From the IMG/VR virus record IMGVR_UViG_2851933302_000004: DNA of 40,715 bases. The stretch is one strand, 5' to 3'. This DNA comes from a virus. Its lineage: Duplodnaviria; Heunggongvirae; Uroviricota; Caudoviricetes. The position numbers were made by a program, and so were the translations under genes. Each line of letters begins with the position of its first letter. The stretch's first letter is position 1. The notes beneath the pieces are model-generated. The model had not been told where the DNA came from, ran no database searches, and saw nothing but the letters and a program-made list of their open reading frames with translations. Positions 2,697-28,962 of the stretch are shown in pieces.

Positions 2697-3087
2697 CGTC
2701 TTTTCTCCCCGGAATTAACTCGCGTGGATTATCGGAACGGTGATAGAGCCATATACCAATACGCACAGCGACAATTGCTGACACGAATGCGCCTGCAGAG
2801 AAAACAATCCCTTTTTCAAAAGAGTCCTGCGTGATGGTAGGGATCAGGCTGGCTATGCCGATAAGAATTGATGCTGCTGGTTTGTAAAAGAGAAGGCCGC
2901 AAAGAAAGCTGAGCATCGACAGGAGCACCCGGCGACGGATGGGGTACTCTACTGCAGAGGTAACAAAAATTACCGCCCCAGCCAAAGCCCCTAAAGCAAC
3001 CTCCGGAGGGACACCTGCAATAACTGCAGCAAGAGAACCAAAACTAAGCAACTGATTTAATTGCTCACTTGTTACTTGAGCAGACAT
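2683..3087 (-). CDS. Holin-like multi-pass membrane protein, first gene of lysis cassette
   Basis: 134 aa, several TM segments, charged C-terminal tail; position immediately upstream of endolysin. Confidence 0.55.
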   Translation of the reverse strand: MSAQVTSEQLNQLLSFGSLAAVIAGVPPEVALGALAGAVIFVTSAVEYPIRRRVLLSMLSFLCGLLFYKPAASILIGIASLIPTITQDSFEKGIVFSAGAFVSAIVAVRIGIWLYHRSDNPRELIPGRKDDGNA

Positions 3088-6513: not shown

Positions 6514-6617
6514 GTTAAATCTCCAGATAGTCGCAGCACCCGTTGCGCCGCATATCTGGTTATTCTATTACCTGGAAAACCACATATGGATAGAAAGGCT
6601 GTAAATACGAATAGATA

Positions 6618-6632
6618 TTACCTTTCAGGTAA
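6618..6632. promoter_or_regulatory. Operator-like palindrome TTACC-N5-GGTAA (copy 1) in the divergent region between tailspike and the LexA-box gene
   Basis: ATTACCTTTCAGGTAAT perfect inverted repeat; same motif recurs at 11 other positions. Confidence 0.5.
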
Positions 6633-6669
6633 TTTGCAAAACGTGCTGGATAGCAAACAAATTATTTGC

Positions 6670-6689
6670 TACTGTATAAATATACAGTT
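6670..6689 (+). promoter_or_regulatory. LexA (SOS) box 20 bp upstream of a small antirepressor-like gene
   Basis: TACTGTATAAATATACAGTT, CTGT-N8-ACAG with AT-rich spacer, matches about 18 of 20 positions of the E. coli LexA consensus. Confidence 0.7.
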
Positions 6690-6708
6690 ATTGCATGGAG
6701 AAGATAAG

Positions 6709-6966
6709 ATGCAGCAGTATCACTATCCACTGGAAGACGGATTTACCGAAAGGATTCACACGCCGGGAGGCGTCAGGTCACTGGTGGAGGGATCGCACTT
6801 GATGAAATTACTCCGGGATCTCGATAAGGATGGATTTAATGTCGATGGCCCACTTGCCGAACTGACTGCACTGATTAACTACGTCACCAGCTCACAGATG
6901 TCTATGCAGGATCTGCAAACACATCTCGACTATTGTGCCGAACAATTACGAAAACAAACCCGGTAA
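6709..6966 (+). CDS. Small SOS-regulated protein, candidate antirepressor; shares a domain with the C-terminus of the Bro-N protein at 8352..9047
   Basis: ORF 6586..6966 trimmed to ATG 6709 (GGAGAAG RBS); LexA box immediately upstream; about 50 percent identity to the C-terminal 75 aa of the 231-aa Bro-N protein (LMKLLRDLDKDGFNVDGPLAELT vs LMNLLNQLQEDGHDVSGAAAELT). Confidence 0.5.
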   Translation: MQQYHYPLEDGFTERIHTPGGVRSLVEGSHLMKLLRDLDKDGFNVDGPLAELTALINYVTSSQMSMQDLQTHLDYCAEQLRKQTR

Positions 6967-6973
6967 ATTTAAA

Positions 6974-6989
6974 GGCCGCAAGAGCGGCC
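6974..6989. terminator. Hairpin between convergent genes (GGCCGC-AAGA-GCGGCC), likely terminator for the minus-strand two-gene module
   Basis: Perfect 6-bp stem between stop codons at 6966 and 6991; T-rich on minus-strand side. Confidence 0.4.
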
Positions 6990-6990
6990 A

Positions 6991-7497
6991 TTAACAGTCG
7001 TAAAATTCCGGGTCCCACAAACTTGCATCGCGCGGCATGGATTCTAAATTTTTCAGCCGCAAAATTCTGTCACACTCGACAAGAAGTTTTTGTTTTTGTT
7101 CGTCAATTTCTACTTTTTTGTGTGCTGGCTCATCCCAGTAATCCAGAAGAAACGCATGTCGCTCAGACGTTACAAGATAAATCACATACACATCACTGGT
7201 TGGTATTTTTTTATGCTTGTTGGTGGTCTTGTCTTTCTTCCCGGATGCCCAGTTTTTCCAGCATTGTTCCGTACCGCTCTCACCAAACTTGTCAGTATAG
7301 TTTCCGATGTTTACGTGAACGTGGCGTATGTGATATTCCAGCATCTCTTTCGGTGGATCCCGAAACAGAGTGTCCTTTCCGAAATCCTTATGATGACCGT
7401 AGCGCCAGTGATCTATGAACGCGTTTTTGATAGGTATTAGCTCAGGGTCCTTCCCAAAAATTCCAGGGTGAACCAACCCCTGGAATTTATTCAGCAT
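6991..7497 (-). CDS. YafO-like toxin domain protein (candidate type II toxin or abortive-infection effector), AT-rich cargo
   Basis: ORF trimmed to ATG 7497; motifs FGKDTLFRD and HIRHVHVNIGN resemble the YafO family core (recalled); overlaps upstream gene by 11 bp. Confidence 0.4.
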   Translation of the reverse strand: MLNKFQGLVHPGIFGKDPELIPIKNAFIDHWRYGHHKDFGKDTLFRDPPKEMLEYHIRHVHVNIGNYTDKFGESGTEQCWKNWASGKKDKTTNKHKKIPTSDVYVIYLVTSERHAFLLDYWDEPAHKKVEIDEQKQKLLVECDRILRLKNLESMPRDASLWDPEFYDC

Positions 7498-7906
7498 CGT
7501 CGTAGAGCTCCTGAGCCATATCTTCGGCAGTGCGTGCAAACATCCTGCGCGAGATTGCATGAGATTTCTCGACGGACATCTTTGGGACCTCATGCATAAC
7601 ATTTTTGGGAGTTGTGTAATAGCCTATTACAATTTTCACACCTGACTTATGATTAATATCAGCATAATATACTTCTTGTTCAGACGTTTCACGACGAACA
7701 TAATCTGCCAGTTTTCCACATTTAAATTCCCCTCCCTGATGTTTTAAAATCTCCTCAACTGCACTATTTTCAGTGAAATACCGAATAAGAAATTTCTGTC
7801 CAGACTCTTCAGCATGAGGTATAACAGTATTATTGGAAGCCCGAACAATGGCCTTACTCAATATTTCATGGTCTTTATTTTTTTCTGATTTCCTCAAATG
7901 CTGCAT
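7487..7906 (-). CDS. Hypothetical protein with acidic C-terminal tail, upstream partner of the YafO-like gene (candidate antitoxin)
   Basis: ORF trimmed to ATG 7906; AT-rich; stop overlaps start of downstream gene. Confidence 0.4.
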   Translation of the reverse strand: MQHLRKSEKNKDHEILSKAIVRASNNTVIPHAEESGQKFLIRYFTENSAVEEILKHQGGEFKCGKLADYVRRETSEQEVYYADINHKSGVKIVIGYYTTPKNVMHEVPKMSVEKSHAISRRMFARTAEDMAQELYDDAE

Positions 7907-8067
7907 TACTGTAGCTCTCTTCGTGTTCACGGGCACCCCCAACTACCTCTAGGGTAAACATTCTATCGAAAGTATACGCATACTGGCAAAAAAATAGGCA
8001 GGTATTTTCTGAAATGGGATCAATCAAACCACATAGGGTTGAAATAACGTGAGTTATGCATTTATTA

Positions 8068-8082
8068 TTACCTTTGCGGTAA
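8068..8082. promoter_or_regulatory. Operator-like palindrome TTACC-N5-GGTAA (copy 2) about 270 bp upstream of the Bro-N gene
   Basis: TTACCTTTGCGGTAA; preceded by AACCACATAGG motif at 8027..8037. Confidence 0.45.
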
Positions 8083-8174
8083 ATTTACATCGCACTCCTC
8101 TTGTGCCATAGTAATCGGGCACTGGAAAAATCCAGTGCCGGGATTGGCGTCCCGGATTACTAAAAGGCGCATTC

Positions 8175-8196
8175 ACCGCGCAAGCGGTTTTTTTAT
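8175..8196 (+). terminator. Intrinsic terminator inside the 5-prime leader of the Bro-N gene (attenuator or end of a small RNA)
   Basis: ACCGC-GCAA-GCGGT hairpin followed by TTTTTTT. Confidence 0.5.
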
Positions 8197-8351
8197 GCGT
8201 ATAGCACGGCCACATTCGTATTATGGTGGGCTGTGTGGGGGCACCGAAAGGTGCGCCGGGTCCTTTTAGCCGGTTACGCCAACCCTGCACAGTTCACCAC
8301 CAACCGATTGGCGTCGGTAGTGGTGATTAACCAGACTAAAAGGTAACCACT

Positions 8352-9047
8352 ATGACAGCTACAAAAAGCACGTCCATTTTTTCTTTCGAATCCCAAGCCG
8401 ATATACGGGTAATCGTCATTAATGGTGAGCCATGGTTTATCGCTTCAGATGTTTGTCGGGCTATAGGCATAGCAAATCATCGAGATGCTGTTCGAAAACT
8501 TGATGATGATGAGAAGGGCGTCGCTTCAACCGACACCCCTGGCGGTGAGCAAGAATCGATCATCATCTCCGAGTCAGGCCTCTACACACTGATCCTCCGC
8601 TGCCGCGACGCAGTGACACCAGGCACTATCCCCTACCGCTTTCGTAAATGGGTTACAGGTGAGGTTCTTCCTCAGATCCGCCGCACCGGAAGTTACATTA
8701 AAAACTCGCTCCCGCAGGAAGAACGCATAAAGATGGTTGCCGACCAGGTAGCCAACGCCACAGCATCAGCAGTGATGCAGGCAATGAAGATAGAGAACAA
8801 AACCTACAGTGCCCCACTGAAGCCCGGCTACCGCAGCCTGATTCATTCGCCGTCTGGTGTTCTCGGCCTGACGGAGAACTCACTGCTGATGAATCTGCTG
8901 AACCAGTTACAGGAAGACGGGCACGACGTATCGGGCGCGGCGGCGGAGCTGACCACCATGTTCTGCTACATCGTCGGTGTGAGCAAGTGCCTGCGTGATA
9001 TCCAGACGCACGCGGAGTACATCAACGACAAGGCTGGGTTCTTCTGA
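8352..9047 (+). CDS. Bro-N domain protein with C-terminal antirepressor-like domain
   Basis: N-terminus FSFESQADIRVIVINGEPWFIASDVCRAIG is a classic Bro-N signature; C-terminus paralogous to the 85-aa SOS-regulated protein. Confidence 0.7.
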   Translation: MTATKSTSIFSFESQADIRVIVINGEPWFIASDVCRAIGIANHRDAVRKLDDDEKGVASTDTPGGEQESIIISESGLYTLILRCRDAVTPGTIPYRFRKWVTGEVLPQIRRTGSYIKNSLPQEERIKMVADQVANATASAVMQAMKIENKTYSAPLKPGYRSLIHSPSGVLGLTENSLLMNLLNQLQEDGHDVSGAAAELTTMFCYIVGVSKCLRDIQTHAEYINDKAGFF

Positions 9048-9113
9048 CGGGCGGCGGCACATGGATGTGCCTTTAAAATAATCATTGGCGATGTGATGTA
9101 GATTCGCGTAATA

Positions 9114-9128
9114 TTACCTTACGGGTAA
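9114..9128. promoter_or_regulatory. Operator-like palindrome TTACC-N5-GGTAA (copy 3) 60 bp upstream of the 210-aa gene
   Basis: TTACCTTACGGGTAA. Confidence 0.45.
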
Positions 9129-9187
9129 GAAAGCGTTTTTAATCTTCCCTTCAAAACGCGTCCTGTAGCCAAACATGGGAGGACGAA

Positions 9188-9820
9188 ATGAAAACAAATA
9201 CAACAAGAAAAGCGATGCCATACATTATCCCAGAAGCAGATTTCGACAGAAAACTGAACATGTCTGAGAAGAACACTAGTCACACCGAAAGCTACTTAGC
9301 GAAAGGTGTGGTTGATTTCGTTCTTCCGGGATTCACAACACCTTATGGTTATCGCCTTGTAAAATCTTGTAATGGCGATCATTACAGAATGATTACTACC
9401 AGCGATACTCCAGAAACGGTGTATGCGGTTAAGTTAATCTTTCGGGAAGATATCGTCGAAGCTAAAAGAACATGTACGCAGATCATGGTATGGCGTACGC
9501 CTAATGTTATTCATGACCGTGCTGTTCATGGTTTGCCTCAGATTTTTTTTCAGTTCTTCCTAGAGCAATATGCGATCGTTGTATCTGATGAGCAACAAAC
9601 AATCGATGGGAGAAGATTCTGGGAAAGAATGATTTCTTGGGCTATAAACACCCCGGGATATAATGTATACGTTTCAGATGGCTCTGAAGAAGATAGACCT
9701 CTTAGCTTCATGACATCATGGGATGATTTCTATAGCCAGTGGGCTGATTTCTGTTGGGGCAGTGATAAAGATGTGCATACCCACAGACTACTGGTTATAA
9801 GCAAAGATAAACTGCATTAA
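9188..9820 (+). CDS. Hypothetical cargo protein, 210 aa, function unknown
   Basis: ORF with GGGAGG RBS; operator copy upstream and strong terminator downstream; no recognisable family. Confidence 0.5.
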   Translation: MKTNTTRKAMPYIIPEADFDRKLNMSEKNTSHTESYLAKGVVDFVLPGFTTPYGYRLVKSCNGDHYRMITTSDTPETVYAVKLIFREDIVEAKRTCTQIMVWRTPNVIHDRAVHGLPQIFFQFFLEQYAIVVSDEQQTIDGRRFWERMISWAINTPGYNVYVSDGSEEDRPLSFMTSWDDFYSQWADFCWGSDKDVHTHRLLVISKDKLH

Positions 9821-9825
9821 TAGAA

Positions 9826-9846
9826 GCCCGCAGCGCGGGCTTTTTT
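9826..9846 (+). terminator. Rho-independent terminator after the 210-aa gene
   Basis: GCCCGC-AGC-GCGGGC hairpin followed by TTTTTT. Confidence 0.65.
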
Positions 9847-9918
9847 GTGGACGAAACAAAAGTCAGTGCTACACTCATTGACGCCACATTGAGGTGGCTT
9901 ATAGATGGAAATTTCACA

Positions 9919-10080
9919 ATGAAAAAAGCATTTGCTGCACTGTTCGTTTTGTTGTCTCTGGTAGCTTCAACTCAGGCCTTTGCCGGTCGTTGTCAGCACG
10001 ACAGCGATACTGCTGCTGACGGCTCCCGCTGCGGTGGGCGTTCTGCGGATTCCCGCCCGGGTGGCGGTGGCATTCGTTAA
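9919..10080 (+). CDS. Small secreted Cys/Gly-rich peptide (about 53 aa), hypothetical
   Basis: ORF 9847..10080 trimmed to internal ATG giving signal peptide MKKAFAALFVLLSLVASTQAFA; weak RBS. Confidence 0.3.
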   Translation: MKKAFAALFVLLSLVASTQAFAGRCQHDSDTAADGSRCGGRSADSRPGGGGIR

Positions 10081-10086
10081 AAACAA

Positions 10087-10102
10087 GGCCGCGAAAGCGG
10101 CC
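10087..10102. terminator. Bidirectional terminator hairpin between convergent genes
   Basis: GGCCGC-GAAA-GCGGCC with T-rich flanks on both strands. Confidence 0.5.
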
Positions 10103-10109
10103 TGTTTGA

Positions 10110-10961
10110 TCACTGTGCAGTTTTCGCTGATCGATTTTCAGCTCTAAATTCAAGAACCGTTTCAATATTTCTTTCCTTCAGCATATCAATAACATTTTTA
10201 TTCATTTGACTATCACTGGTTAATAACTGGTAAACGTTGCTTCTCTCTTTATCAGAGTTTTCTTTAACAGCTGCTTTGCATGCCAAATGCTTATTGAAAT
10301 TTTCTACATCGCTAGTACAGGAATTTACGGCTGCTGATGAAATATCAGACGCTGAAGAAACACCATCATCCAAACGTTTTATAGCATTTTCTATACATGA
10401 GTTAAGGGAATAAACGACAACTGAGCGATACCCTTCAGACGCACACCATTCTAAATTTCTTGAAGGATCGAGTGGTTTTACTTCGCTGGATTGAATTAAC
10501 TTGTCAAAAACTGACTTATATTCAATCTGTTTTTTATCTATAGCCCATACTTCAGTAGCTGATTTATAATTCCCCGTATGCCTATTAACATCAAATCCAT
10601 GTTTTATAAGCAAATCTGCCCATGAAAGATTTATTGATTCATTGTTATGAGGCCATTTTCCTGTCAGAACCGCCCCCATAGACCCCATATATCCGCCATA
10701 TGATGGTATAGCACCATGGCTCAGTAACTTCTCAGCAACCACAGGGCAATTAATTACATAAGAGGCGTAAAGCCCATTCCATAAAGCCCCTCTATAGTAA
10801 TCGCCACGATTAGGTTCTTTTAAGTCGATAGCCTTTGATAATTGTTCACACGTTTTGCATGCATCAAAGTTATCCTTATTGCATTGCAATGAACTGGCAG
10901 CTGTAGGATTTACAGAGACTATTGAAAGCACTATGCCAAAAAACAAATTTATTTTTTTCAT
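10110..10961 (-). CDS. AT-rich secreted protein, 283 aa, possibly ankyrin-like repeats; moron at the distal end of the virion operon
   Basis: Signal peptide MKKINLFFGIVLSIVSVNPTAASS; codon composition visibly more AT-rich than neighbours; LLSHGA / LLIKHGFDVN segments are ankyrin-like. Confidence 0.55.
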   Translation of the reverse strand: MKKINLFFGIVLSIVSVNPTAASSLQCNKDNFDACKTCEQLSKAIDLKEPNRGDYYRGALWNGLYASYVINCPVVAEKLLSHGAIPSYGGYMGSMGAVLTGKWPHNNESINLSWADLLIKHGFDVNRHTGNYKSATEVWAIDKKQIEYKSVFDKLIQSSEVKPLDPSRNLEWCASEGYRSVVVYSLNSCIENAIKRLDDGVSSASDISSAAVNSCTSDVENFNKHLACKAAVKENSDKERSNVYQLLTSDSQMNKNVIDMLKERNIETVLEFRAENRSAKTAQ

Positions 10962-24128: not shown

Positions 24129-24421
24129 TCCTGTTCACTGGCCTCTTTGGCCATCTTCAAATACTGTTCAGGACAATGCGCCATAACGCGCTGAAACAGT
24201 TCCAGCGCCAGATTGCGTTGCCCCTCATTAAATGCCATTGCCATAGCGTCCATCGGTGAGATAGCGGAAAACACACGGCCTTTCTCCAGCACCGACCAGA
24301 CAACGCGACGCCCCTGTTCACTGCTCATGACAAAGCGAATGTCATCAATTTCACGCTGTGCCATGTCACGTTGCTTACGGGCGTTTTCTTCTTTCAGTTG
24401 ATCGTCTTCGTAATCTGTCAT
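24125..24421 (-). CDS. Hypothetical small protein between portal and scaffold genes
   Basis: 98 aa ORF, overlapping stops and starts with neighbours. Confidence 0.4.
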   Translation of the reverse strand: MTDYEDDQLKEENARKQRDMAQREIDDIRFVMSSEQGRRVVWSVLEKGRVFSAISPMDAMAMAFNEGQRNLALELFQRVMAHCPEQYLKMAKEASEQE

Positions 24422-26097
24422 TGTGATTGCCCACCCTGACCACTAACTGCATTCGCCATAGCTGACAAAACACTCGGATCCGAAGTTTTAGCTTCGCTTA
24501 GCGTCTTGGCACCCTGTGCCGCCGCCATCCCCATCGCCATCATTTGTTGCTGCTGTTGCTGCTGTGCCCGTTGCTGGCGAGCCTGCTCAACCTGTTCCTG
24601 CGGAACAATGACGGTTGGAGACACTCCGGACATATCAGCGAATGCATCGATCGCCTGATCAACGTTGAGTTTGTCGAGAGCTTCTGGTTTCGCTTGCGCA
24701 AGTTGACCAATGAAGTTAACCGTGGACGCCAGACTGGACAGGCCGATAGACTTCTGCGCCTGAGCCATGACGGAAATGTATTCGACCTTCAGGGGCATAC
24801 CTTCCATCACGTCTGGCGGTGGCGGCAGCATGTTTTTACGCACCATCATCGAGAAAGAGCGGTCAATGAGAGGATTAAGACATTCGTCGTTCAGACGCTC
24901 CAGAACCGGCCCCAACATCAGAAGTTTTTCTTCTTTCATTTCGATCACCGCTTCAACAGGCATCGAGCGGGTATTGATGTTCTGCAACATCATGAACAGA
25001 TCGACAAAGTAGGCGCTGTTAATGATTTGACGAGTGTCCTGAATGTCTGCCACCAAATCTGCTGTACTGGGGTTAACCAGATAAGCAGGCCTGAAACCAT
25101 CCTGACCAGTAATCTGATCGATATACGTGATGTCGCCAGGAAGAAGGGAGGCACGCTGATTCTTGAGGGAAGTCGGAGCAACCATCGGCGGATTGGTGGC
25201 TTTATCAATCAACTGCGACTTGCGCTTCTGGAGAAGCTGCAATGCCTTAACAGGTCCAAGCGCCAGCATACCCGGGCATGATGATCCATAAACATCTTCG
25301 CCGTTAACTTCCCAGCGCGGAGCCATAATTGGAAACTCATCGAATCCGGACTCACGCAACAACTTGTCGTTATCGCCACCAACCTCGTAATAAACCGATT
25401 TGAATGGCTTGTTCTTGCTATCCAGCTTCGATGTATCGCGGTCAATGTTCGGGTAAACCGAATGCATCACTTCAATCCACTTCTCGTAGGTGCCGCTTTC
25501 CCACATGCTTTTTACGGATTCGCTGACGTTATTTAGCCCGAACTCCTGAACAAGCTGACGAACAGTCATAGAGAACTTGCGAAAACAGGTGTCCACACTG
25601 CCACGAGGTGAGTTAGCCAGGTAGTAACTGCCTATCGGGAATGGCATTGTGCGAATGATGTCCTCGTCATCCTCCAGCACCGCCATTGCACCAGTGCTGT
25701 ATGTGCCGAGGCTTCCGTATAACTGCGGAAGAGACTGGTAGAGATTCGACTTATTGAACATATCGTTCATGCGGTTCTGCACCGCCTCGAGCCACAACTT
25801 AACAGGACCATAATCCATCATTTCAGGATCTGGCGTAGCCAGGCGAAACCACGGACGCGCAGGGCTTGTGATGCCTGACATCATGCCGCTGGCGAGAGTG
25901 CGCGCCGCCATAGTCCCGGTCGAATCAATAATGCGTGTATTGCGTCGATCGTTACGGTTGACTTCAGAAGTCAGAAAGCGGGAACCACGCGGGTTGATGT
26001 AATCACTCAACTCGCGCCAGTGCGGCTCGAACGACTGACGCTCGCTTTCAAGTTGTGCGAACTGTTTGTTCAATCGCTCTTTAGTTGTTTCCGCCAT
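24418..26097 (-). CDS. Portal protein
   Basis: 559 aa with Gln-rich C-terminus; first gene of head block; size and order. Confidence 0.7.
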   Translation of the reverse strand: MAETTKERLNKQFAQLESERQSFEPHWRELSDYINPRGSRFLTSEVNRNDRRNTRIIDSTGTMAARTLASGMMSGITSPARPWFRLATPDPEMMDYGPVKLWLEAVQNRMNDMFNKSNLYQSLPQLYGSLGTYSTGAMAVLEDDEDIIRTMPFPIGSYYLANSPRGSVDTCFRKFSMTVRQLVQEFGLNNVSESVKSMWESGTYEKWIEVMHSVYPNIDRDTSKLDSKNKPFKSVYYEVGGDNDKLLRESGFDEFPIMAPRWEVNGEDVYGSSCPGMLALGPVKALQLLQKRKSQLIDKATNPPMVAPTSLKNQRASLLPGDITYIDQITGQDGFRPAYLVNPSTADLVADIQDTRQIINSAYFVDLFMMLQNINTRSMPVEAVIEMKEEKLLMLGPVLERLNDECLNPLIDRSFSMMVRKNMLPPPPDVMEGMPLKVEYISVMAQAQKSIGLSSLASTVNFIGQLAQAKPEALDKLNVDQAIDAFADMSGVSPTVIVPQEQVEQARQQRAQQQQQQQMMAMGMAAAQGAKTLSEAKTSDPSVLSAMANAVSGQGGQSQ

Positions 26098-26408
26098 TTC
26101 AATGACTCCGGTTACTGACCAAGCAGCGTTTTACCGCTGGTATTAGCGGTTGATGTGTCGCCCTGAGAACCGGTAAGCAGCGTAGAACTACGACCAGCAG
26201 CAGCGCGACGGCGACGTGTTTCTTCGTCGCGGGCATCAACAACGGCGGCATCCTGCTCCTGTGGTGCTGCCTGAACTTCTGGTGTTGCAGGCACTGATGG
26301 TGAGCTACCCATGCACATATCAATGACTCCGTACGCAATTAAATTATTACCAATTTAACCACATATGATTTATTTATCGTAGAAGGTTGACATTTAACGC
26401 GTTAATTA

Positions 26409-26423
26409 TTACCTTTCAGGTAA
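26409..26423. promoter_or_regulatory. Operator-like palindrome TTACC-N5-GGTAA (copy 4) upstream of portal, with TTGACA 16 bp away
   Basis: TTACCTTTCAGGTAA identical to copy 1; AACCACATATG at 26358..26368 also shared with copy 1 region. Confidence 0.45.
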
Positions 26424-26745
26424 CCAAAGGGCTCATTCTGGTTACTAACCTGACTGGCTTGTCGTTAAATTAAACAGGTGGAGTGAGCTTTTATTTTGAG
26501 CAGTACGGCGTATGGCACATGCGCCGATAGCGGTCTGGATACGTTTAAGGGGCACCCTCCCTTGCTCGGGCAAACGAACCAGGTAGCCGGAATGTGCAAG
26601 TCGAGCGGTTTTATTCCGCGCACGGGGATTCACCATCCCGGCGATTCGGTGTGACGCCTCGGAAGAGACGAGGGTACAACGATGAGAGCATTTATGGAGC
26701 CGCGACAAAGTGTGGCGCCTTAACAGGCTAAGTGCTCTCAGCGTT

Positions 26746-26822
26746 GTGGCATTAGCTCAGTTGGACAGAGCAACCGCCTTCTAAGCGGTTGGTCGCAGGT
26801 TCGAATCCTGCATGCCACGCCA
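26746..26822 (+). tRNA. tRNA-Arg (anticodon UCU), phage-encoded
   Basis: Cloverleaf folded by hand: 7-bp acceptor stem GTGGCAT/ATGCCAC, D-arm GCTC/GAGC, anticodon stem ACCGC/GCGGT with loop CTTCTAA, T-arm GCAGG-TTCGAAT-CCTGC, encoded CCA; resembles host argU with compensatory stem changes. Confidence 0.9.
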
Positions 26823-27020
26823 GAATCACGCCTAAGGACCGTGATGCCAGAAGTTCCAGGTGCTTGGCGGTGATGGTTTCCCTTGAAGGACTATCACCGC
26901 CCTTTTTACAGCAGGACGCCATTGCGATGACTTCATGCTGTAAACCCGTACAGCCACGGAAGGCATAACTCATTGCTTCCAGTTCGCCCGGTTCGCCGGG
27001 CATTTTTTTAAGGTGAGATC

Positions 27021-27443
27021 ATGAAAACAATTGATATGTTGGCTAAGTATCTAAATGAATGGCCATTAAAATATTCTCGTATCGTTCAGGCTGAAGACTG
27101 CGTTTTTTATGGCGTTTTTGCTGGTAATGAAATGCATTACGAAGTAATTCAGAGTGAGGGACTGGCCGGGTTAACGCTTAGCGATGACCATGGAATAGGA
27201 GTTACTTGCCATGACTGGATTTCAGCGCAGAAAACTGAAATGGAAAAAGGCAATGTGTTTGATATTTCTCGCGCTGTATACGCCAAAGAAAAAAGTGATG
27301 ATGATTACATGCGCGAAAACTTATACAACATGAAGTTACAATGCCTGGCTGAAGTGCTTAGTAAAAGATCTTTACTTGATGTGGTTGGTGCTGAGCAGGA
27401 CGCCAAGGCAATCAACGCCGCATTCGATAAAATAACCTTCTAA
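27021..27443 (+). CDS. Hypothetical moron protein, 140 aa, opposite strand to late operon
   Basis: ORF with AGGTGA RBS; flanked by hairpin terminators on both sides; between terminase and portal genes. Confidence 0.5.
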   Translation: MKTIDMLAKYLNEWPLKYSRIVQAEDCVFYGVFAGNEMHYEVIQSEGLAGLTLSDDHGIGVTCHDWISAQKTEMEKGNVFDISRAVYAKEKSDDDYMRENLYNMKLQCLAEVLSKRSLLDVVGAEQDAKAINAAFDKITF

Positions 27444-27447
27444 CGCC

Positions 27448-27462
27448 GTGACATGTCACAAT
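27448..27462. repeat. Palindromic repeat CGTGACATGTCACAAT copy B, just downstream of large terminase
   Basis: Identical 16-mer also at 29663..29678; core GTGACATGTCAC is a perfect 12-bp palindrome. Confidence 0.6.
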
Positions 27463-27463
27463 C

Positions 27464-27489
27464 AGCCCGCCGATTCGCGGGCTTTTTTA
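27464..27489 (+). terminator. Rho-independent terminator after the moron gene
   Basis: AGCCCGC-CGATTC-GCGGGCT followed by TTTTTT. Confidence 0.6.
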
Positions 27490-28962
27490 TGCAAAAGGAT
27501 CATAGTCTGTGATGGCTTTGCCTTGCTGGTTCTGCTGCCCGGGAATTCGCAGACGCTTCGACACAGGGAACGCAAACGTCAGCAGTAGCGCATCGCCTTT
27601 ACCAGGAGAACGCCCAAGTCGCTCTTTGATATCTTCCTTCGGTTCGATAACGATTTTACCGTCCACGCGAACTTTGTACTCTGCCGTCGACAGGTCGTCC
27701 GCTGTTTCCTGGTCATCCAGCATGCCGCCGAGCCTCAGCCATGTCTTGCATGAGTTGAACATCTCCCCACGCTTGTTGAGCATCTGCGGGTCAGTAGACG
27801 CGCCACCGAACGGAACAAGTTGCCATGTACGACCCCAGCCGTCACCGATTGACTTCAAACCGGTTCCGTAACCGAAGTCGATGAACACCGCGTCAGCCTG
27901 ATACTGGTCTTCAAAGTCAGCGATACGCTTCGCCATAATCAGATCGTCGGTAGTCTTGTTGCCAGTCCACAGCACCTTACTGTGTAGCCCCTGCCGCAGG
28001 TATATCACCGCGTCATCAACGCCTGAATATGCCGGGTCAACACCGATTATCACCGGAGCATGTGCCACCTGCGCAGCGGTTACCACCCGTTTCATTGCCT
28101 CGTCAGTAAGACCGGTAGGGATAAACTGCAATTCAGATGCATCAGGGAATATGCCACGCACACGGATTTTAACGAAGTCGCTATCTTCCCCATAGTCATC
28201 AACCCATTTCTGCAACTGCTGTTTGTTGGTGCCTTCCACCGTCCTGCTGTCAATCTGCGCAGTTTTCCAGCGGTGTTTGTATTTGCGGAAACATTCACGG
28301 AAACGCCCGGTGTTACGTGTAGGGTTTCCGAAAGCCACCCAGATAATCTCAGTGTCTTCGTCCGTTAGCGCACCCTCGGCAACTTCCCACACCAGATCCG
28401 CAATGTTCGACGCTTCATCAAATACCACGATGATGCGTTTACGCTCGTTGTGTAGTCCGGCGAATGCCTCAGTGTTGTGCTCAGACCAGGGGATTGCGTC
28501 AGCTCGCCACCGCTTGTCGTGCCCAGGGTCATTGCTGTACATCGCGGTAGCGGTACAGGTAAACCAGTCTTTCGTGATAGCAAGGTTTGACCACTTGATA
28601 ATTTCCGGCCAGGTCTTCGTTCGTAGCTGGTTGTCGGTGTTGGCGGTCACCACGACCTTACAATCCTCGCAAGTGGACATGCCCCAGTTGATCAGCATTG
28701 AGATGAATGCGGATTTACCAATACCGTGACCAGAAGCACGTGCCAGCATAAGCGGCTGATATCGCGTCTCTGGATTCTGCAGGTGATCACGTATCTCTCG
28801 GAACGCATCGGCCTGCCACTGACGTGGACCGGTGGCATGTGCCAGTTCAGTACCCTCTTCCCCCCACGGGAACGCATAGAGGGCATAGCCAAGCGGATCG
28901 TGAGTGAACCCTGCAATATCCTCGATTAACTGCTCTTCAGGAGATAACGCTGTATCTGTCAC
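27487..28962 (-). CDS. Terminase large subunit
   Basis: 491 aa; Walker A-like ASGHGIGKS, ATPase and nuclease segments; coupled to upstream small subunit. Confidence 0.85.
   Translation of the reverse strand: MTDTALSPEEQLIEDIAGFTHDPLGYALYAFPWGEEGTELAHATGPRQWQADAFREIRDHLQNPETRYQPLMLARASGHGIGKSAFISMLINWGMSTCEDCKVVVTANTDNQLRTKTWPEIIKWSNLAITKDWFTCTATAMYSNDPGHDKRWRADAIPWSEHNTEAFAGLHNERKRIIVVFDEASNIADLVWEVAEGALTDEDTEIIWVAFGNPTRNTGRFRECFRKYKHRWKTAQIDSRTVEGTNKQQLQKWVDDYGEDSDFVKIRVRGIFPDASELQFIPTGLTDEAMKRVVTAAQVAHAPVIIGVDPAYSGVDDAVIYLRQGLHSKVLWTGNKTTDDLIMAKRIADFEDQYQADAVFIDFGYGTGLKSIGDGWGRTWQLVPFGGASTDPQMLNKRGEMFNSCKTWLRLGGMLDDQETADDLSTAEYKVRVDGKIVIEPKEDIKERLGRSPGKGDALLLTFAFPVSKRLRIPGQQNQQGKAITDYDPFA

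Follow-up and report, generated by a model that had tools for sequence, protein, structure and literature searches.

A structured-RNA module apparently carries the tRNA-Arg(UCU) gene of a phiV10-like prophage

Why does a short run of plus-strand features interrupt the minus-strand packaging and head genes of a Caudoviricetes virus? We addressed this question for IMG/VR record IMGVR_UViG_2851933302_000004, whose whole stretch of 40,715 nucleotides (nt) is called the window below. The original prediction for this DNA had described a transfer RNA (tRNA) gene and a 140-aa open reading frame (ORF) as an island between the terminase and portal genes. That description was correct, and what it describes is of an ordinary kind: a known phage tRNA-Arg with a variable cargo ORF, both real features of phiV10/epsilon15-type prophages and ordinary ones, as relatives already carry annotations for both. 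By themselves, they are of little weight. The new element is an unannotated, widespread structured RNA encoded upstream of the tRNA, which we call the leader RNA. The tRNA is apparently a payload inside a conserved, apparently repressor-controlled structured-RNA module that had been overlooked. The predicted island span, 26746..27490, does hold plus-strand features but is too narrow, as the unit starts at ~26387.

Candidate copies of the leader RNA were collected by an 18-mer genome scan, for which ~17 chance matches were expected. Four of the 27 loci (L017, L021, L027, and L037; L numbers are our locus identifiers) lacked the rest of the core and were discarded. An nhmmer profile of the conserved block matched the window once (26500..26675) and had matches in ~40 loci examined, and covariance model R1 scored the leader RNA of the window at 153 bits. 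The alignment comprised 32 non-identical sequences from phages and prophages of Escherichia, Salmonella, Klebsiella, Enterobacter, Citrobacter, Kosakonia, Erwinia, and Stenotrophomonas. RNAalifold predicted 28 base pairs for these sequences, 10 of them with compensatory changes. Our structure adds a pseudoknot between the hairpin loop CACC and a downstream GGUG; a C-G pair is replaced by A-U there in six sequences. With the pseudoknot included, 98.6% of the alignment cells were paired, compared to 30-42% in slid controls, and 11 pairs (64 cells) were changed on both sides. On four of the five measures, none of 500 shuffles reached the value of the real alignment; on the fifth, one did. The G-U pairs fit the plus strand only. 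A 19-mer within the core (GGUAGCCGGAAUGUGCAAG, 26582..26600) was invariant and common to E. coli and Stenotrophomonas phages.

A known RNA family was excluded for the leader: Rfam 15 yielded no match at the gathering score, nor at E ≤ 10 on the plus strand of 26424..26745. In open-access papers, the invariant motif was found only in unrelated primers, and neither the P1 transcriptome preprint nor the ZX5 paper (PMC9782041) mentions the leader RNA; its novelty is bounded by Rfam 15, three annotated collections, and the open-access literature. The leader RNA was annotated in none of the records examined. It was detected in 1839 of the 5426 complete E. coli genomes (34%), with 554 of the locations on plasmids; the plasmid examples listed have the size of P1. 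At least 120 IMG/VR contigs also carry it.

The contexts of the leader RNA point to early operons. In phage P1 (L039:2495-2674), it is located between trnI and ban, in the C1-operator-controlled ban operon. In the lambdoid phages cdtI (L040:2495-2669), Stx2a_WGPS2, mEp390, and Stenotrophomonas BUCT708, it sits immediately downstream of the cI-like repressor gene, and in cdtI and mEp390 it starts 45-50 nt past a near-consensus sigma-70 early-left promoter. Scans of the first early-left ORFs after the leader in these lambdoids, limited to those ORFs, yielded no N-like match in Pfam or PHROG. A conserved terminator of the type called T1 below follows the leader at +148 to +560 in most contexts. 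Copies are also present at L041, L044, and L045.

The association with tRNA genes is recurrent but far from universal. Among 112 distinct viral loci, 24 had a tRNA-Arg(UCU) gene 71-135 nt downstream of the core, 13 had a P1-type tRNA(CAU) gene 9 nt upstream of the leader, and 75 had no tRNA; the linked tRNAs were always co-oriented with the leader. Both serve rare codons of E. coli, AGA and AUA. The tRNA holds a fixed position in the module across Escherichia, Salmonella, and Klebsiella phages, and some of the other payloads resemble tRNAs in having a T arm and a closing stem like an acceptor stem. We regard the leader RNA as an independent, widespread module and the tRNA as only an occasional payload of it. 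In Candidatus Erwinia dacicola (L024:6651-7070), connector and payload occur twice in tandem after one core, and one of the two payloads has a T-arm-like hairpin that ARAGORN does not call a tRNA. Several IMG/VR contigs with the core beside tRNA(CAU), as in P1 (L062, L146, L067, L109, and L135), also contain, at another place in the locus, a tRNA-Arg(tct) of a different lineage.

The layout of the unit in the window (Table 1) was compared in an alignment of seven Uetakeviruses over the gap between the gp3-like gene and TerL (alignment A2). Their common order on the plus strand is promoter/operator, ~300 nt of conserved non-coding sequence, tRNA or another insert, hairpin, terminator T1, spacer, terminator T2, and ribosome-binding site (RBS). 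TTGAC(A/C), the spacer length, and the -10/operator block of the promoter are kept; the spacer sequence varies. A consensus promoter scan did not report this candidate, because its -10 agrees at only three of six positions. In the same alignment, the inverted repeat TTACCtttcaGGTAA overlaps the -10. The pattern TTACCN5GGTAA has 14 copies in the window, against 0.58 expected, and none of 100 shuffles reached this number. The copies (6618, 7943, 8068, 9114, 26409, 29555, 29573, 32367, 32429, 34375, 34712, 34760, 35472, and 35534) cluster at regulatory gaps, some of them in the cI/cro-like gap, in the immI-like region, and upstream of TerS, and the epsilon15 record has "repressor" binding sites annotated at homologous places. 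They are presumably the operator set of the phage repressor. Together, these observations suggest a repressor-controlled plus-strand promoter with a start near 26422. A second motif, AACCACATA, precedes the operators at 6618, 8068, and 32429 by ~32 nt and that at 26409 by 43 nt.

Table 1. Positions of the plus-strand unit and the flanking genes in the window.
Feature	Position	Strand	Basis
Portal gene	24418..26097	-	ORF list, annotation of relatives
gp3-like gene	26112..26318	-	ORF list, annotation of relatives
Candidate sigma-70 promoter (-35 TTGACA 26387..26392, 17-nt spacer, -10 TACCTT 26410..26415)	26387..26415	+	Alignment A2
Operator-like inverted repeat TTACCTTTCAGGTAA; overlaps -10 and predicted start site	26409..26423	.	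Motif counts, epsilon15 annotation
Structured RNA core, ~190 nt, at least six helices and a pseudoknot, unannotated family	26494..26681	+	nhmmer, covariance model
Connector hairpin (GAUGAGAGCAUU ... AAGUGCUCUCAGCGUU), running right up to the first nt of the tRNA	26681..26745	+	Arm location
tRNA-Arg(UCU), argU-like, 3' CCA encoded, in the payload position of the module	26746..26822	+	ARAGORN, Rfam
Hairpin AUCACGcc...CGUGAU after the payload	26825..26845	+	Conserved in tRNA-bearing and tRNA-less relatives (A2)
Terminator T1 (GGCGGTGATGG...CTATCACCGCC then CTTTTT)	Hairpin 26866..26901, with tail to 26907	+	14 pairs, dG -18.7
Conserved spacer ending in terminator T2	26908..27009	+	Conserved in all aligned Uetakeviruses including epsilon15
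Terminator T2 (GCCCGGTTCGCCGGGC + AT7)	26986..27009; hairpin 26986..27001 then ATTTTTTT	+	Hairpin scan
140-aa cargo ORF, ATG start, RBS AAGGTGA 27010..27016	27021..27443	+	ORF list, phrog_4846 match
Terminator T3 (AGCCCGCCGATTCGCGGGCT + T6), unidirectional, after the ORF	Hairpin 27464..27483, with tail to 27490	+	Hairpin scan
TerL gene	27487..28962	-	ORF list, annotation of relatives
TerS gene	Ends 28959	-	ORF list, annotation of relatives

The junction of ...AGTGCTCTCAGCGTT with GTGG, where the connector meets the payload, is kept in lambdoid, Uetakevirus, and other copies regardless of the payload. The hairpin terminators predicted after the tRNA and after the ORF were both found (T1 and T3), with T2 as a third that had not been noticed. 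T1 begins 44 nt after the tRNA, and a homolog (TGGCGGT..ACCGCC-T5) follows the core in cdtI, Stx2a_WGPS2, Citrobacter L028, Tyrion, and KpST11phi3.2. A terminator homologous to T3 is annotated in the phiV10 record. In epsilon15, the 3' part of the leader, the tRNA, and the 5' arm of T1 are missing through a deletion between 13-bp direct repeats (TTCCCTTGATGCT), which are 394 bp apart in SPN9TCW (L005:2884 and 3278). The site annotated as "RNaseIII" in the epsilon15 record (L004/L049, ~2700..2750) corresponds to the surviving 5' hairpin of the leader RNA. The spacer between T1 and T2 contains a stem GGAAG..CUUCC followed by the terminator (26933..27009, plus strand), which is the architecture of Hfq-type small RNAs, and could be a small RNA; its RyhB-like match in Rfam is weak and sub-threshold (E = 1.3).

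Judging from the sequence comparisons, we consider it fairly probable that a single plus-strand RNA operon of a phiV10-type prophage makes up the island, with a leader, a tRNA payload, and a cargo ORF. Its promoter would be silent in the lysogen, because it overlaps the operator of the phage repressor, and would fire on induction or infection. The transcript would start with the ~190-nt leader RNA and continue through the connector hairpin into tRNA-Arg(UCU), and most transcripts would probably end at T1. RNase P and 3' tRNA-processing enzymes would release the tRNA, thereby also freeing a leader RNA of ~320 nt. The tRNA may then supplement argU by decoding AGA and, less efficiently, AGG, a benefit for which the demand is documented below. 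Transcripts passing both T1 and T2 would express the swappable cargo ORF.

The role of the leader RNA itself can be proposed only tentatively. By analogy, it could be a cis-acting RNA like the put sites of phages HK022 and HK639, making RNA polymerase resist downstream terminators. About equally likely, it could be a stable trans-acting RNA that terminates at T1 and whose ends are defined by tRNA-processing enzymes. The put-like role is favoured because the leader heads early operons in lambdoids showing no N-like first gene, because terminators follow it, and because an RNA-based mechanism has been suspected in N-less lambdoids with the same yfdQ-type early-left operon (PMC12315714). The arrangement also has the logic of antitermination, with T2 placed directly against the RBS of the cargo ORF and a strong T1-type terminator after the leader in most contexts.

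Several observations weigh against parts of this interpretation. Neither nhmmer nor, at E ≤ 10, covariance model R1 detected similarity between the leader and the put sequences of HK022 and HK639, and the leader is ~3 times larger than put. A polymerase made resistant to terminators would continue beyond T3 and read TerL in antisense. Between the leader and ban of P1, no terminator was detected, and epsilon15 retains T2 despite having lost most of the leader RNA. The -10 of the candidate promoter is weak, the consensus scan found no promoter, and the operator at 26409 could belong instead to a promoter on the minus strand that drives gp3 and portal. As for the tRNA, Tyrion lacks it and is as AGA-rich as tRNA-bearing relatives, and epsilon15 is viable though its tRNA was lost by the 394-bp deletion. 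Membership of the leader in the put family was ruled out by the missing nhmmer and covariance matches and by its different architecture.

A broader proposal is more doubtful still. The ~190-nt leader could represent an undescribed phage RNA family of P1-like plasmids, Uetakeviruses, and lambdoids showing no N-like first early-left gene, acting on the transcription or RNA-processing machinery of the host. Most attractively, it would be a second, put-unrelated class of antiterminator driving their early-left transcription, with rare-codon tRNAs captured beside it repeatedly.

The tRNA gene passed the check with prediction tools. ARAGORN detected exactly one tRNA in the window, a tRNA-Arg with anticodon tct, and the Rfam tRNA model (RF00005) scored it at 73.3 bits (gathering score, 29; E = 2.5e-14). 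It has stems of 7/4/5/5 bp and UCU in a 7-nt loop, and thus belongs to tRNA-Arg(UCU). As predicted, it resembles E. coli argU (between fimZ and intD) with compensatory stem changes. The identity is 85.9%; the anticodon and its loop, the D and T arms, and the encoded CCA are the same, while pairs 2:71, 4:69, 6:67, 29:41, and 30:40 are changed on both sides and are all still Watson-Crick. We gathered 14 distinct tRNA-Arg(tct) variants from all loci compared in this analysis. All 294 cloverleaf cells pair (100%, compared to 26-50% in slid controls), and 12 of the 21 cloverleaf pairs are doubly changed. The anticodon loop CUUCUAA, A20, C35, U36, the T loop, and the encoded CCA are invariant (alignment A5). 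A20, C35, and U36 are the identity elements for arginyl-tRNA synthetase. By this comparative evidence, the tRNA is genuine, functional-looking, and under purifying selection.

Copies of the tRNA gene are present in phiV10, PAS61, phiv142-3, SPN9TCW, and two Klebsiella phages and absent from epsilon15, Tyrion, and Klebsiella ST11-OXA245phi3.2. A copy of at least 95% identity was detected in ~9% of the complete E. coli genome records. Several relatives and RefSeq E. coli prophages already have a tRNA-Arg annotated at this genome position; the annotated phage-borne genes, in phiv142-3, O157 typing phages 9/10, SPN9TCW, SPC32H/N, and Klebsiella ST512-KPC3phi13.3, are identical or near-identical. 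Open-access papers yielded nothing on the ileZ/argN/argO tRNAs of Stx phages. Some public records mis-annotate the region. The phiV10 RefSeq record has no tRNA and places an antisense 83-aa ORF, p04, over it (L003:4155-4406; window 26752..27003, minus strand); the PAS61 record also lacks a tRNA annotation; and the phiv142-3 record assigns the tRNA to the wrong strand and truncates it by 8 nt (L002:4155-4223).

We estimated the demand for AGA and AGG decoding from codon counts, using the same greedy ORF procedure for all sequences and 50 kb of adjacent host DNA as the reference. The prophage used AGA at 8.0/1000 and AGG at 5.5/1000, compared to 1.4/1000 and 1.2/1000 in the host flank (5.6-fold and 4.5-fold), and the two codons made up 22.6% of the arginine codons in the prophage and 4.9% in the flank. 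Enrichment over the host, whose absence would have counted against a supply role, was therefore seen. The proposal that the tRNA supplies late genes held only in part: the enrichment is real but is not found in the neighbouring head and packaging genes (AGA 0.9/1000, AGG 1.9/1000). The excess is elsewhere, in the tail and injection genes (7.3/1000 and 7.9/1000), the tailspike (15.4/1000 and 7.7/1000, from 16 AGA and 8 AGG codons), the accessory genes at 6586..10961 (18.0/1000 and 4.8/1000), and the early genes (8.1/1000 and 5.3/1000). Among the relatives, tRNA presence did not cleanly separate by AGA use: Tyrion (7.1/1000) and epsilon15 (4.2/1000), which lack the tRNA, overlap SPN9TCW (6.0/1000) and BUCT711 (4.8/1000), which have it. 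Because the enrichment spares the neighbouring head genes and relatives without the tRNA come close in AGA content, the link between supply and demand is loose. The decoding demand is thus real on these counts, and rare-codon supply by the tRNA is plausible but not tightly coupled to it.

The 140-aa ORF, which lies opposite to the flanking terminase and portal genes as predicted, is a real gene, given its match to phrog_4846 (E = 1e-91) and its 107 full-length homologs. PHROG gives no function for this family, and the homologs, all in Enterobacteriaceae, are every one named "hypothetical". Neither Pfam nor PADLOC yielded a match, and no defence or anti-defence match was found. The AlphaFold model was poor (predicted local distance difference test score 62, predicted template modelling score 0.35). 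Among the close phage records, the ORF was found only in PAS61 and HEMP4. Its GC content is 0.395 compared to ~0.52 around it, and homology to phiV10-type phages ends at the ATG, the slot being replaced from the ATG to the terminator like a cassette. In phiV10, epsilon15, and the prophage of E. coli E2865, this slot holds an ORF of the Gp49/Sf6-gp66 family (PF13876), and other ORFs fill it in further relatives, including SPN9TCW and Klebsiella phages. Its low GC content and its replacement by other genes in relatives suggest that the ORF behaves like cargo in a swappable slot. A Citrobacter braakii prophage (L018:6132-6551) has a homolog of the ORF (MKTVDMLAKYLNEWP..) after T2 and a structured insert other than a tRNA in the payload slot; the ORF and the tRNA are therefore exchanged independently.

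These properties bear on whether the ORF is a classical moron with its own promoter, serving the lysogen by, for example, exclusion or conversion, and independent of the tRNA unit. The low GC content, the cassette-like replacement, the variable presence, the independent assortment, and the terminator of its own (T3) all suit a moron, and this much of the predicted label stands. The promoter part does not: a consensus-only scan reported no promoter-like site in 25900..27800, including the stretch from T1 to the ATG, and inspection by eye revealed only weak candidates between T1 and T2. Moreover, two terminators lie upstream, the U-tract of T2 abuts the RBS, and the sole conserved upstream promoter carries a repressor operator. 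As the ORF has neither a functional match nor a good structure model, a lysogenic function gains nothing from those sides, and we consider the moron explanation unlikely, though it fares best among the alternatives to a single operon.

Somewhat less probable is that the tRNA is mainly an RNA-processing signal, which recruits RNase P or RNase Z and defines the ends of the leader, with decoding as a side benefit; this would be compatible with the proposed operon. A tRNA or tRNA-like fold stands after the leader in Uetakeviruses and before it in P1, where trnI ends 9-14 nt before the core, an arrangement comparable to tRNA punctuation and MALAT1-mascRNA. The slot has the same junctions (..CAGCGTT followed by GTGG ... 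CCAC..AATCACGCC) whether it is filled by a tRNA or by another structured insert closed by GUGG/CCAC, and the acceptor changes from argU at 2:71 and 4:69 lie within this shared GUGG/CCAC. T-arm-like hairpins were found beside the core in 13 of 39 loci, compared to ~0.5 expected; three of the T-arm inserts were uncalled by ARAGORN at default settings, and two received dubious calls under relaxed settings. However, 75 of the 112 viral loci lack a tRNA and most payloads lack a T arm, whereas the tRNA, where present, retains all charging and decoding features in 14 variants. That both linked tRNAs read rare codons (AGA and AUA) also points to decoding.

A third explanation, that the tRNA is a counter-defence spare which takes over when an anticodon nuclease or a toxin directed at tRNAs has destroyed the host tRNA-Arg(UCU) during infection, appears improbable. 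Such a use of phage tRNAs is established for T4 against PrrC, for T5 against PARIS, and for mycobacteriophage tRNAs, and both the five stem pairs differing from argU and the predicted early lytic expression would suit it. The anticodon loop CUUCUAA, however, is the same as in argU and invariant in the 14 variants, so a nuclease recognising the loop would cut the phage tRNA too. The neighbouring ORF has no defence or anti-defence match, and nothing ties the locus to a nuclease.

The setting of the window bears on the remaining explanation. Megablast matches of 94-98% identity over 26098..27490 were obtained with the phiV10-type relatives, namely Escherichia phages PAS61, HEMP4, phiv142-3, phiV10, and TL-2011b and O157 typing phages 9/10, all of them Uetakeviruses, i.e., the epsilon15 group. 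The same query also matched 64 Synechococcus phage records (80-90% identity), presumably because these phages have tRNA-Arg genes of their own. ORFs like the host genes yfgH and yfgI occupy the left end of the window, and an integrase gene the right end. A prophage of E. coli E2865 has a 100% identical tRNA and the same layout between yfgI and guaA. In phiV10, epsilon15, and ZX5, attP adjoins the integrase and attB is the 3' end of guaA (PMC9782041). From the yfgI and integrase borders, the E2865 layout, and these att sites, we identify the window as a phiV10-like prophage of the Uetakevirus group, inserted next to guaA. Although many temperate phages integrate at tRNA genes, argU included, and the DLP12 integrase gene adjoins argU in K-12, the predicted alternative of a recombination relic, taken as a functionless remnant left when the phage integrated or recombined illegitimately at a tRNA gene of the host, is ruled out for all practical purposes, since the prophage borders are at yfgI and guaA with attP by the integrase ~13 kb away, and the tRNA, rather than a fragment identical to the host gene beside the integrase or att site, is a full-length, conserved gene with only 86% argU identity, a perfect cloverleaf through 12 doubly changed pairs, and a fixed position in the module.

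Elsewhere in the window, two Rfam matches exceeded the gathering score on the plus strand: isrK at 8119..8194 (76.7 bits) and C4 antisense RNA at 8219..8304 (77.7 bits). They are preceded by the operator at 8068..8082 and followed by a 231-aa ORF at 8352..9047. We read the region 8119..9047 as a P1/P7-type immI (antirepressor) control region, here in a podophage.

The leader RNA heads early operons in three unrelated types of temperate phage, including the model phage P1, and wherever the upstream sequence could be examined, a repressor operator or canonical early-left promoter was found just before it. If the leader does modify RNA polymerase, this would explain how seemingly N-less lambdoids pass their early terminators, an acknowledged gap (PMC12315714), and would constitute a second RNA-only antitermination system.

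The nearest system in proposed activity is that of HK022 putL/putR and the putL-like site of HK639, cis-acting RNAs at the start of early operons with intrinsic terminators downstream. Put RNA has ~70 nt and two stem-loops (PMC9378689). The same context was found in cdtI, Stx2a_WGPS2, mEp390, and BUCT708, where the leader opens an early operon with terminators downstream and where Pfam and PHROG scans of the first ORFs detected no N-type protein. In cdtI and mEp390 the promoter precedes the leader at the short distance given above, and the candidate promoter of the window carries a repressor operator. Unlike put, the leader combines ~190 nt, at least six helices, and a pseudoknot, shares neither sequence nor covariance-model similarity with it, and has an activity that is predicted. 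GOLLD and ROOL are structured non-coding RNAs of phages and prophages that often occur beside tRNA genes. The leader has no Rfam match to either, is much smaller, and occurs in temperate phages of the Enterobacteriaceae type. A further close system is the Op72/C1-controlled ban operon of P1 (trnA, trnT, trnI, ban). There, the tRNA (Ile, CAU) is upstream of the RNA, and a helicase gene follows instead of terminators and a cargo ORF; yet the same core, at ~80% identity, stands beside a co-oriented rare-codon tRNA under repressor control.

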